Virus record (IMG/VR): IMGVR_UViG_3300020048_000017
Coordinates: 64,001-128,000 of that record
Reading direction: 5' to 3' (one strand)
Source of the DNA: a virus
DNA length: 64,000 nt
Below are positions 42,584 through 45,642 of this stretch, one piece after another. A model generated the notes under the pieces. That model worked only from the letters and a program-made list of their open reading frames with translations. It was not told the origin of the DNA and searched no databases. The translations under genes and the position numbers were made by a program. Every line of letters starts with the position of its first letter. The first letter of the stretch is position 1.

Positions 42584-42611
42584 ATTATAGCCCATTACTC
42601 TAAATTGTCAA
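42584..42611 (-). promoter_or_regulatory. sigma70 consensus promoter TTGACA-N16-TATAAT
   Basis: -35 at 42611-42606, -10 at 42589-42584. Confidence 0.75.
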
Positions 42612-42849
42612 GGAAAATTTTAGAGAAACCATAACTTTTCACAATTTCTATAACGGGCTTGGCCGCAATCTGATTATAATCTGGGGGAAAGTCCACCCCT
42701 AGAAAGTCACACATATCCATATTCCACGGGGACATTTTGGACATTATGTTTTTAGAAAAAGGAATCTGTCCTCGTTCAATCTTGGAAAGAGTTTTTAGAC
42801 AAGACTTTAATCTTGAGTGTTTGATCTTACGGATTCTCTTAGATATCAT
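42595..42849 (-). CDS. Small protein with very basic N-terminus
   Basis: MISKRIRKIKHSRLKSCLKTLSKIERG; starts directly 3' of the structured RNA. Confidence 0.6.
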   Translation of the reverse strand: MISKRIRKIKHSRLKSCLKTLSKIERGQIPFSKNIMSKMSPWNMDMCDFLGVDFPPDYNQIAAKPVIEIVKSYGFSKIFLDNLE

Positions 42850-43200
42850 AGGTTCCCGCTCTCTAATTCTTATTAATTCCCTTTAATTCTCTTAGCCACC
42901 TCTATTTCTTTTAGGAAATAGAGATTAAGCAATACTGGTCCATAGCGAAGGCAAGGCTTCGCCTGAACCAATACGCCTAATCCCGAATACTTCTTTTGAG
43001 GTCTTCAGTAGATTACAACTATTGTTGCAGCAATATTGGTGTTAAACAAACGAAATCCTGTAACATCAATCCTTAGACCCTCCAATATAAACTTGTAGGA
43101 TTTCGTCTGGTCCGGCTTGTTTTTCAGGTATGGTCTCCCTAGCGACAAGATGGTCCGAAGTCTTTTTAACCCAGCTCTTGGACTCGGAGCGGGAGGATTA
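42850..43200 (-). ncRNA. Unclassified ~350-nt structured RNA or leader
   Basis: Terminal 8-bp helix (43194-43187 with 42861-42854); 11-bp stem (43107-43097 with 43059-43049); 28-bp hairpin 42984-42921 with six G-U pairs; 9-bp hairpin 42923-42900; promoter directly upstream; no ATG-initiated long ORF. Confidence 0.7.
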
Positions 43201-43205
43201 TGATC

Positions 43206-43233
43206 ATTTTACACCTTAATTTTGAAAAGTCAA
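43206..43233 (-). promoter_or_regulatory. sigma70-like promoter TTGACT-N16-TAAAAT (also contains GTGTAA)
   Basis: -35 at 43233-43228, -10 at 43211-43206; predicted +1 near 43200. Confidence 0.7.
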
Positions 43234-43242
43234 GAAGAAAAA

Positions 43243-45642
43243 TCAAAATCGAGCAGTGTGGAGGCCTCTCCCGACTTCATAAACTGGAAGCTGATTACAA
43301 ACTAAGGCCTCTCCGTTAGCAAAGATACTCTGGGAGTAAGACAGGGATGTATTAAAAAACTCCAACGTTTGAGAACTTCCAGAGGCATATTTAGTAGCAA
43401 AAAGATGACCTTTGTAAAATAACGTCCAGCTTTGAGAAGACTCTGGTAAATAACCCCCTAAAAATGAATTGTCTCTTCGAAAATTACTTAAGTTAGAACA
43501 ACTATTAAGTAATAATACATTTAAAGTATTTTTTTGTTCGATTCTCGATTCTCCATCCTTCTTATACACGGTGTAATATATTTTTAAATTCTTATCATTG
43601 ATTATTGAAGATTCGGTAGTGAACTCAGGTAAATAAGATATTAAAATGGTTGTAGAGATTGTTTTTGTAGACAAAGCATCCAAAAAATAAGAACTTGTAT
43701 AAGAACCAATAGGTGTTTCCCCGTCAGTTTCGTAATTAGAGTCGTAACCAGTCGATGCAAAACTTATAGGATTATTTGTAGACCCAATTTTAGTAATAGA
43801 TGCGGTTTCGTAATCAACAAAAGGTAAACATGCGAGGCCTAAGACTTTAGTTTGATTTTTATTTCTATAAAGATAAGAAGAAGTTTTAGGTGTTAAAACA
43901 TCTTGTTCATTGTAAGATATTTCGACGTACTCATATAATTTTTCAGAATTAAACCCAATAACACCCGCTTTAAATTCAGGAACGATTGCGTAATACCCAC
44001 CAAAGTAGTTTTCAAAAAAGACATTTGATAATTGACCAAGTGAGTTGGTTCCGAACTCCTGAAATGTCTTTGCTTCCGATACACTAAACGAGTATCCCTC
44101 TTGCCCAAGTATTTGATAAGACTTTCCTATATAATTATCACCATCTCTAGACTCCCACTCTCCAGCCGTTGAATAATCGGTGGAAAAAGCAGAAGAGCTA
44201 TCTTCAGGATTAAAATAACTTGTGATATTATTAATATAATTACTAGCAAAAGTAGTGTCAAACTTTTTAATAACATCTATCTCGGTTGTTGTGAAATTTT
44301 TAGGATCGCTTTTTAATAAAATAACTTCTTTTACAATACTGTACGATGATCTTATTCCCGACCTAGTTCCAACTCCATACTCTTTATTAACATTATTTAA
44401 AACCCCCCCAGAAGACCCTCGTTCGATTAGAGAAAACGAACGTATTTCTTGAATACGAAAGGTCGAATCGTCCGACCTAGTAAGATTAATAGTGTCTTCG
44501 TAATTAATAGTGGTTGGAGCAATTATTTCGAAACTAACCACAGAATCGTTCCCAGATCCCACTTGCGCCGAAATCGAGAAACTGCCCATGTTTATAGAGG
44601 TGCCTTTATCCGTCCACTTATATTGACCAGCAGTTGTTTTAAGGCATTGAGAGAATTTAAAAAATGGAGAAATACGGCTATAAGCGCCAGCGTAATTAAA
44701 AACTTGAAATCTTTCTAATTCATTATGATAATCTTCAACAAAAGTATTGATAGTATACCTGCCTACTTGGCGACCACCACTAGGAAGTTCGTATTCTTCA
44801 GTTTGAGTCCCGAAACTTTCCCCAAAGAATTCATAAGTATACGTAAAAACAGATGGAATAAAAGTTTTAGTTTTGCAAGGAACAAAATTTATAACAGTGG
44901 TTGTTCCAGTTGTTGTGTAAGAGCCATTTGAAATCGAAAATGTATTTTTATCTGGGTATGTCGCGATATAATTAATAGTAGTGGGTAGGTTATTAATTGA
45001 AAATTCTTTTGTATAAGTGCTATTATAATTTTCTCGAACAGCAACCTTAAAAGTATTGTTCGAAGTATTTTCAAAAACTGTTGAAAAACTGGAGCTGGAA
45101 ACTTCTCCATTTACGACATTACTTACAGTAGACTTGTAAGATGCTCCACTTTCATTCCTAACATTATAATATTTAGTAACCGCAGACCCTATAACTGTGG
45201 TTTCGTTATTAATTTCATATCCGTTGTCAAAATCGTCGCCCGTCTCAACTCTTGAAGTTTGAGTTTCCCCATTAACGGTGGTGGTGACTATATTAGTTTG
45301 ACCCCATTCCCCAGTATGGACAACTGAAGAATTATTCTTATACTCATAAGTCCTAGCCACAGTGATCCCGCCTTGTTGCGTCTGATTTACACCATCTACC
45401 TGCTCTTCGGCCTGAGTGGTTCTACGAACTTCTTCGTTTAAAAATTGAGTATTTTTAACTTCTTTAGAGTTATTATGAGAAGTTGTTAAAGTCTCATTAT
45501 CGACAGCGTTTGAATCCACGGTTTTGCCGACCTCGACCCTGCTAAAAGAAGTTATATAAGAGCGAGTTGTAAGATAGTTTTCCGACTTACCATAACTAAC
45601 AGGGAAGGATTCCGCCGTAGTATATTTAGATTCATAACGCAT
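43243..45642 (-). CDS. Putative tail fibre / structural protein, Ser/Thr-rich
   Basis: 799 aa, beta-rich T/S/N/Y composition, last gene of the tail module. Confidence 0.55.
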   Translation of the reverse strand: MRYESKYTTAESFPVSYGKSENYLTTRSYITSFSRVEVGKTVDSNAVDNETLTTSHNNSKEVKNTQFLNEEVRRTTQAEEQVDGVNQTQQGGITVARTYEYKNNSSVVHTGEWGQTNIVTTTVNGETQTSRVETGDDFDNGYEINNETTVIGSAVTKYYNVRNESGASYKSTVSNVVNGEVSSSSFSTVFENTSNNTFKVAVRENYNSTYTKEFSINNLPTTINYIATYPDKNTFSISNGSYTTTGTTTVINFVPCKTKTFIPSVFTYTYEFFGESFGTQTEEYELPSGGRQVGRYTINTFVEDYHNELERFQVFNYAGAYSRISPFFKFSQCLKTTAGQYKWTDKGTSINMGSFSISAQVGSGNDSVVSFEIIAPTTINYEDTINLTRSDDSTFRIQEIRSFSLIERGSSGGVLNNVNKEYGVGTRSGIRSSYSIVKEVILLKSDPKNFTTTEIDVIKKFDTTFASNYINNITSYFNPEDSSSAFSTDYSTAGEWESRDGDNYIGKSYQILGQEGYSFSVSEAKTFQEFGTNSLGQLSNVFFENYFGGYYAIVPEFKAGVIGFNSEKLYEYVEISYNEQDVLTPKTSSYLYRNKNQTKVLGLACLPFVDYETASITKIGSTNNPISFASTGYDSNYETDGETPIGSYTSSYFLDALSTKTISTTILISYLPEFTTESSIINDKNLKIYYTVYKKDGESRIEQKNTLNVLLLNSCSNLSNFRRDNSFLGGYLPESSQSWTLFYKGHLFATKYASGSSQTLEFFNTSLSYSQSIFANGEALVCNQLPVYEVGRGLHTARF

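Follow-up and report, generated by a model that had tools for sequence, protein, structure and literature searches.

The nearest described analogues of the locus reported here are the PL-nutL-N region of phage lambda and autogenous operators such as the leader of T4 gene 32. In PL-nutL-N, a structured leader that contains boxA and the 15-nt boxB hairpin comes after an early sigma-70 promoter, and the first gene encodes a small protein, N, which is disordered and has a basic N-terminus. In phage HK022, the put RNA (two stem-loops, ~70 nt) acts in cis right after an early promoter, folding as it leaves the polymerase and using no protein partner. Autogenous operators, among them the T4 gene 32 leader pseudoknot and the ribosomal-protein leaders, are structured 5' UTRs. 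GOLLD, ROOL, OLE, raiA and HEARO are large, highly conserved, complex RNAs of phages and environmental sequences. The lambda nut element is described in PMC2724277 and PMC2800207.

We analyzed a 64-kb stretch of phage DNA (the window), which comprises bases 64001–128000 of a 179,178-bp record that has direct terminal repeats and is estimated to be complete. Nearly all genes of the window lie on the minus strand. The closest cultured phages are Streptomyces phages, with a DnaE identity of only ~28%. At the junction of the structural and replication modules, an ORF-free stretch follows a 799-aa Ser/Thr/Asn-rich ORF (43243–45642) that has no family match and is itself preceded by other large structural-looking ORFs and a 2568-aa ORF. 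The 799-aa protein keeps a C-terminal block of ~120 aa (LLNSCSN...GG..P) across homologues and diverges in the remainder, as receptor-binding tail fibres often do. Downstream of the ORF-free stretch, a small gene heads the nucleotide-metabolism and replication genes in the order 84-aa basic ORF, 166-aa ORF, dNMP kinase, SSB and a glycosyltransferase-like gene, and homologous loci run on into ribonucleotide reductase genes. The locus has the following main features.

43206–43233, minus strand: sigma-70-type promoter found by promoter scan, with the -35 box TTGACT at 43233–43228, a 16-nt spacer and the -10 box TAAAAT at 43211–43206.
42865–43200, minus strand: conserved structured RNA core, ~336 nt, RNA position 1 being 43200; covariance model R1 (below) scores 147–360 bits in all homologues.
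42595–42849, minus strand: gene for an 84-aa Lys/Arg-rich protein (84–97 aa across the family), directly downstream of the RNA in 9/9 loci.
42584–42611, minus strand: second promoter, TTGACA-16-TATAAT, a 12/12 consensus match within the last codons of the small ORF.

The best handle for relatives was the 166-aa neighbour protein, for which word-based and exhaustive HMMER searches returned a handful of homologues; one further IMG/VR record was reached via DnaE. This gave nine distinct RNA sequences (the window, L072, L074, L106, L109, G001 (L076), L108, L110 and L116), the homologues being uncultured phage contigs of one narrow clade. Their loci share a layout of a large upstream ORF, a promoter, an ORF-free stretch of ~340 nt, an 84–97-aa basic ORF, a 160–190-aa ORF, dNMP kinase and SSB. 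A BLAST search of the locus against 50,697 GenBank phages gave no match, and scanning IMG/VR with the 799-aa neighbour or with the exact hairpin word found nothing. A 20-base 5' pattern retrieved G001 and one GC-rich chance match (L080) from IMG/VR; its 18-base version hit 24 loci on JGI metagenome contigs, all of them chance matches by nhmmer, and a longer gapped pattern found G001 only in IMG/VR and none in 185,579 species genomes. Model R1 had no match in 26 DnaE-relative phage records that are more distant, one of them a complete 134-kb genome, and the syntenic place in these distant relatives is a divergent promoter region. In the complete 134-kb relative (L114; G013:C1:109000–116000), the dNMP-kinase operon starts at a divergent intergenic region of ~400 nt (~2181–2585) that faces genes apparently of ribonucleotide-reductase size.

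Public contigs from soil and wastewater metagenomes align to the window with similarity limits at 43200 and 42838/42839 and with unlike flanks, and about a dozen lake or freshwater sequencing runs contain a roughly RNA-sized share of the sampled words. The predicted RNA family is narrow, yet it is present in freshwater, soil and wastewater data of several studies.

Several lines of comparison indicate that the ORF-free element at 43200–42865 (minus strand, ~336 nt) is a real RNA feature. The sequence-only reading, made from the letters of the window, had described the stretch as free of ORFs; no ORF is conserved, since every homologue has 2–10 stops per frame and a 47-aa TTG ORF of the window is broken in L074. 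Identity to the window is 99% in the RNA versus 72–87% in the flanking genes for L072, 88% versus 58–64% for L074, 81% versus 56–59% for L106 and 72% versus 54–56% for L109. Between the window and L072, the small ORF has a dS of 0.52 and a dN/dS of 0.10, whereas the RNA differs at ~1% of positions, indicating purifying selection on nearly every nucleotide, unpaired ones included. The same dN/dS value argues that the small ORF is a real gene.

As that reading had supposed, the RNA could not be assigned to a known family. Rfam 15 had no match at gathering score in the whole 64-kb window; at E up to 10, the region 42700–43350 gave only a chance miRNA match of 16 bits (gathering score, 86), and five homologous loci gave none at E up to 1. 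Rfam 15 covers tmRNA, RNase P, 6S, SRP, group I/II introns, T-box, cobalamin and other riboswitches, as well as GOLLD, ROOL, OLE, HEARO, raiA and self-cleaving ribozymes. ARAGORN detected no tRNA or tmRNA in the window. A tmRNA or tRNA-like molecule was rejected as a candidate, ARAGORN being negative and the acceptor-like helix between the 5' and 3' ends not being conserved. The RNA is previously uncatalogued with respect to Rfam 15, the unnamed candidates of a 10,006-csRNA survey (PMC10690425) not having been compared.

The promoter TTGACT-16-TAAAAT that had been read upstream of the element was recovered by the scan at 43233–43206. A promoter of the form TTGAC[AT]-N16/17-TAnnnT is present in 9/9 homologues, with exactly 5 variable nt between the -10 box and the first conserved RNA base. 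This constant register makes it almost certain that the RNA 5' end is the transcription start and that the pseudoknot PK1 (below) uses the very 5' end. From the RNA start to the start codon of the small ORF, the distance is 333–354 nt in every homologue, and a terminator-like site between the two was found neither nearby in the window scan nor in any homologue. Only L110, whose sequence is the most divergent, has an A/U-rich hairpin of 7 bp with a U-run behind it in the interval from the RNA to the small ORF (L110:2684–2722); this hairpin may be a weak attenuator. The earlier proposal for the element, a possibly new class of phage ncRNA or else a large leader with a regulatory role, is supported by the negative Rfam searches, the covariation described below and the promoter register in 9/9; between the two options, the data favour a large leader, because no homologue has a terminator before the next gene and the distance to that gene is held at 333–354 nt.

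We infer that the RNA is transcribed and accumulates. None of the listed sequencing runs that contain its words is recorded as RNA. One 158-nt contig, from a wastewater run labelled METAGENOMIC RNA-Seq, matches 42914–43070 with 3 differences, lies inside the RNA and has no flank matches; it is a weak hint of a transcript, the RNA nature of the run being a guess and the contig giving no strand, ends or level.

To obtain the conserved fold, a hand-curated structure was converted into covariance model R1 and all homologues were re-aligned. Standard pairs occupied 89.7% of cells in the nine sequences, compared with 80.2% in shuffles and 31–52% in slid controls. Both-side changes were found in 37 of 86 pairs, compared with 15.8 ± 2.6 in shuffles (0/500 reached 37) and 8–16 in slid controls; the latter are the fairer comparison, given the relatedness of the sequences and an alignment that was in part fitted to the model. 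The structure clearly beats the slid controls. Folding of both strands of 42850–43200 against shuffles gave an MFE of -107.8 kcal/mol and a z of -4.2 for the minus strand (0/100 shuffles as good) and a z of -2.2 for the plus strand. In the conserved structure, G-U cells numbered 90 and A-C cells 21, with 89.7% of cells paired on the minus strand and 80.0% on the other, which fixes the transcript strand as minus and bears out the earlier argument from G-U pairs that selection acts on an RNA strand. Compensatory changes above background and strand-specific G-U pairs, the general marks of a conserved structured RNA, are thus both present. A position at the structural/replication module junction would also suit a role of the DNA itself, for instance as a replication origin or packaging site, or hairpins that line up by chance. 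That explanation, already disfavoured, is extremely improbable in view of the 90-to-21 asymmetry, the compensatory changes in 37 pairs, the promoter in fixed register and the element being single-copy, with no direct repeats or iterons.

The fold resolves into eight helical elements and two pseudoknots, arranged as follows from the 5' end of the RNA.

43195–43200, minus strand: 5' strand of PK1, UAAUCC, the first six nucleotides of the RNA; its partner GGAUUG (43067–43072) is in the P3 loop.
43170–43193, minus strand: P1 hairpin, a 7-bp stem and a 9-nt loop with near-invariant GUCCA.
43111–43163, minus strand: 3' end of J1/2 and the composite P2/P2a/P2b arm (helix coordinates 43111–43159), with the PK2 5' strand AGACUU at 43158–43163.
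43050–43106, minus strand: P3 long helix, enclosing P3a (43073–43085), the PK2 3' strand (43075–43080) and the PK1 3' strand (43067–43072).
43036–43049, minus strand: P4 hairpin, variable and weak in the window; 3/3 counted pairs covary.
43015–43028, minus strand: P5 hairpin, GCAAC/GUUGU, with both-side changes in 3/4 pairs.
42990–43003, minus strand: J5/6, single-stranded, containing ACCUCAAA, which is invariant in all homologues.
42921–42984, minus strand: P6 hairpin, 27–28 bp in the window, with both-side changes in 10/26 pairs.
42901–42922, minus strand: P7 hairpin, with invariant CCUAAA in its loop (42908–42913).
42875–42888, minus strand: P8, a short A/U hairpin with 94.4% of cells paired and one covarying pair.
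42847–42874, minus strand: variable tail, translation-initiation region and ATG of the small ORF, with the clade-specific GAGCGGGA at 42854–42861.

PK1 is paired in 92.6% of cells, and its U-A to C-G change occurs in L109, G001 and L116, which are not one another's closest relatives. In P1, both sides changed in 4 of 7 pairs and 96.8% of cells are paired; the loop reads GUCCA in 8/9 sequences and GUCCG in L116. P2a covaries in 5/5 pairs, and the P2 arm is reduced to a short hairpin in L110 and L116. PK2, in which AGACUU just before P2 pairs with the P3a loop GGGUCU, is 100% paired with 2 covarying pairs, a support that is post hoc, as the pairing was found by a scan of all column pairs. P3 shows both-side changes in 5/7 counted pairs, P3a alternates between G-C and A-U (4 versus 5 sequences), and both pseudoknots are predicted to dock into the P3 internal loop. 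Clear 4–6-bp stems of different sequences stand at the place of P4 in other homologues. The P5 loop is of GNRA type in L074, L106, L109 and L108, and in P7 of L109 UGCUUC/GAAGCA substitutes for UAUUUC/GAAAUA.

Set against this fold, the sequence-only reading was right about the RNA, the promoter, the strand and the helices P6, P3 and P7, and was not confirmed on the terminal helix, the UAUUG stem and the partner of a pseudoknot. Its 11-bp and 9-bp helices are P3 and P7, both of which covary. The 64-nt hairpin at 42984–42921 is present as P6, with base and tip conserved; its middle third is clade-specific, being paired in the window-like clade only and replaced in G001 and L108 by an internal loop that holds the invariant UAUGGAC (42938–42944). 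The 8-bp helix UCCCGCUC/GAGCGGGA, which was to join the two ends, is found in the window, L072 and L074 only; with 62.7% pairing over 8 homologues, it does not exceed the shuffles or the slid controls, and its 5' strand serves instead as the 5' strand of the local covarying hairpin P1. In place of the UAUUG/CAAUA stem stands the covarying P5. The pseudoknot GGGUCU/AGACCU is broken in 3–4 of the 9 sequences, the GGGUCU loop pairing instead with the upstream AGACUU of PK2.

Other contacts within the RNA are suggested by its invariant segments. The P1-loop GUCCA (43178–43186) and UGGAC of P6 (42938–42944) are 100% complementary in 9/9 sequences, one A-to-G change keeping a G-U pair; both sides are near-invariant, so covariation is uninformative on the pairing. 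Within P6 of the window clade, UGGAC has another partner, a hint of competing pairings. A pairing of the P2b-loop CCAUA with UAUGG was rejected as a general feature, P2b being absent from L110 and L116. In the classical 11-nt receptor for GNRA tetraloops, the two strands read UAUGG and CCUAAG. The invariant UAUGG in the P6 3' strand (42938–42944) and CCUAAA in the P7 loop (42908–42913) resemble these strands, and a receptor-like tertiary contact with the GNRA-type P5 loops of four homologues may exist and offers a lead.

A compact tertiary fold of riboswitch, ribozyme or RNP-scaffold grade is indicated by how large the RNA is, by its two pseudoknots and by junctions that are invariant (GGUUAAAAAG, ACCUCAAA, UAUGGAC and CCUAAA). 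Such architecture could mean that the double-pseudoknot core binds a metabolite or cleaves itself, the RNA being a ligand-sensing riboswitch or a self-processing ribozyme. In its favour, both pseudoknots meet in a single internal loop, the invariant junctions are rich in purines, P5 carries GNRA-type loops, and the element lies upstream of nucleotide-metabolism genes. We nevertheless regard this as improbable, given that a conserved expression platform or switch helix was not found, that no Rfam riboswitch or ribozyme model matched, and that the gene directly controlled encodes a small basic protein, neither an enzyme nor a transporter.

That small protein has a pI of 9.7–11.5 across the family and carries 7–11 Lys/Arg among its first 25 residues. 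An AlphaFold2 model of the 84-aa protein is all-helical (pLDDT 91.9): a long helix at the N-terminus leads into a small bundle of helices. Searches of Pfam, PHROG, NCBIfam and PDB sequences gave no match; ESM Atlas returned only sub-threshold rows, Foldseek against PDB and BFVD nothing at E up to 0.001, and the best VIA-align Z, 5.8, is within noise for helical bundles. The second promoter, embedded in the end of its gene, serves the 166-aa, dNMP kinase and SSB genes, and a TTGACA-containing promoter-like sequence is visible at its place in homologues. The -35 box encodes a Phe-Leu-Asp stretch of the small protein, and its conserved 'FLD' C-terminus may be constrained by the DNA signal.

On this evidence, the element is a genuine, covariation-supported new family of structured RNA of ~336 nt, most likely a module of leader RNA and basic protein. 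The best-supported reading, to which we give a probability of roughly 0.4, is a cis-acting 5' leader that works with the protein encoded after it; it draws on a promoter register and a leader length that are both fixed, on the lack of a terminator, and on the basic protein strictly accompanying the RNA. RNA and small ORF occur together and adjacent in 9/9 loci, which places the RNA in the 5' UTR, where an autogenous operator is expected. In this mechanism, host RNA polymerase would start at the sigma-70-type promoter and the first six nucleotides would form the PK1 5' strand; the RNA would fold into its eight helical elements, tied by the two pseudoknots docking in the P3 internal loop, and the transcript would continue, without a terminator, into the gene of the very basic protein, which is small and helical. 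With its N-terminal helix, rich in Lys/Arg, this protein would then bind the folded leader and so set its own translation or mRNA stability. Leader and protein might also make up a ribonucleoprotein whose target is the machinery of transcription or translation.

Some observations count against the cis-acting leader. Thermodynamic folding did not show consistent sequestration of the start region, whose mean unpaired probability is 0.17–0.67 across homologues against whole-RNA means of 0.39–0.45, and only a subclade has the one obvious alternative pairing by which the ribosome site would be covered; simple occlusion of that site is thus, as far as predicted pairings go, not conserved. The RNA is far larger than known autoregulatory operators, and no relative of the small protein was detected among known RNA-binding folds. 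The strong second promoter right after the small ORF makes the leader unneeded for transcribing the downstream genes. The case also draws on nine distinct sequences of one narrow clade, in an alignment partly model-fitted.

A fold of this grade would also suit a trans-acting or RNP role, which we consider somewhat unlikely. In one form, the transcript would yield a stand-alone early ncRNA, possibly with the small protein as partner, which would be released by processing, for example by an RNase III cut in P6, and would then act on a host target in takeover, as a decoy or in anti-defence. Duplexes of 27–28 bp are typical RNase III substrates. P6 is such a duplex in the window, conservation extends to the unpaired junctions, as is typical of tertiary-structured or partner-contacting RNAs, and the 158-nt contig from the RNA-Seq-labelled run lies wholly within the RNA, a weak hint. 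However, searches for a terminator or a conserved processing signal were negative, the spacing from the RNA to the ORF start is kept within narrow limits, and P6 is no long perfect duplex in G001, L108 or L110. Antisense complementarity to the RNA elsewhere in the 179-kb phage genome was not above chance. A free ncRNA therefore seems unlikely. More tentatively still than the leader, the RNA could represent a class of large RNA not met before, with an architecture of riboswitch or ribozyme grade, forming with the basic protein an early-expressed phage RNP and no simple translational operator. Host or phage polymerase, the ribosome, a nuclease or a defence system are conceivable, again tentative, targets of such an early RNP.

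The order of promoter, structured leader and first gene with a basic N-terminus is also that of lambda PL-nutL-N, and the 5' end of the RNA coincides with the transcription start, as expected of an element that acts co-transcriptionally. It could thus modify polymerase, either as nascent RNA alone in the manner of HK022 put or together with the protein in the manner of lambda N/nut, and confer termination resistance across the early and replication genes. Yet no homologue has a boxA-like sequence (GCUCUUUA-like, up to one mismatch, at a conserved place). A scan for intrinsic-type terminators gave 13 terminator-like sites downstream against 13.9 expected, none convincing, and several strong internal promoters make read-through unnecessary. 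The small protein is predicted to be folded whereas N is disordered, and the RNA exceeds put and nut in size by a factor of four to five. A polymerase-modifying leader is, for these reasons, quite unlikely.

Few large RNAs have complex folds that covariation supports, and most of the known classes have proved to be ribozymes, riboswitches or RNP scaffolds. This one is tractable for experiment: it has a promoter-defined 5' end, two covariation-supported pseudoknots, extreme conservation and a dedicated neighbouring small basic protein, and RNA and protein can be produced in vitro although the phage is uncultured. The module may reveal how a clade of lake, soil and wastewater phages controls or protects its first transcripts, and entry in RNA family databases is warranted whatever the function of the RNA.

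Compared with known systems, the RNA resembles GOLLD, ROOL, OLE, raiA and HEARO in being a large, highly conserved, complex RNA of phages and environmental sequences; it differs in that none of their Rfam models match, in being shorter, in lacking flanking tRNAs, in being fused to a downstream ORF and in its very narrow distribution. With HK022 put it would share the place of a cis-acting RNA right after an early promoter, folding while leaving the polymerase, although put has two stem-loops and no protein partner, and our RNA is larger. The resemblance to lambda nutL/N lies in the early sigma-70 promoter, the structured leader and a first gene with an Arg/Lys-rich N-terminus, all three of which are found here, and in a long leader duplex that could be an RNase III site. 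The locus has no boxA, which separates it from the nut class; instead of the 15-nt boxB hairpin, it has ~336 nt with eight helical elements and two pseudoknots, and in contrast to N, the small protein is predicted to be a folded helical bundle, with no downstream terminators of the intrinsic type detected and, as far as these go, no visible need for antitermination. Autogenous operators are several times smaller and far less intricate, and the protein here is of no known family, mimicry of a known primary target not having been identified. Like the T4 gene 32 leader pseudoknot and the ribosomal-protein leaders, however, the RNA is a structured 5' UTR with a pseudoknot near its 5' end and an A/U-rich stretch before the start codon, and the gene for a basic, nucleic-acid-binding-like protein follows it directly.
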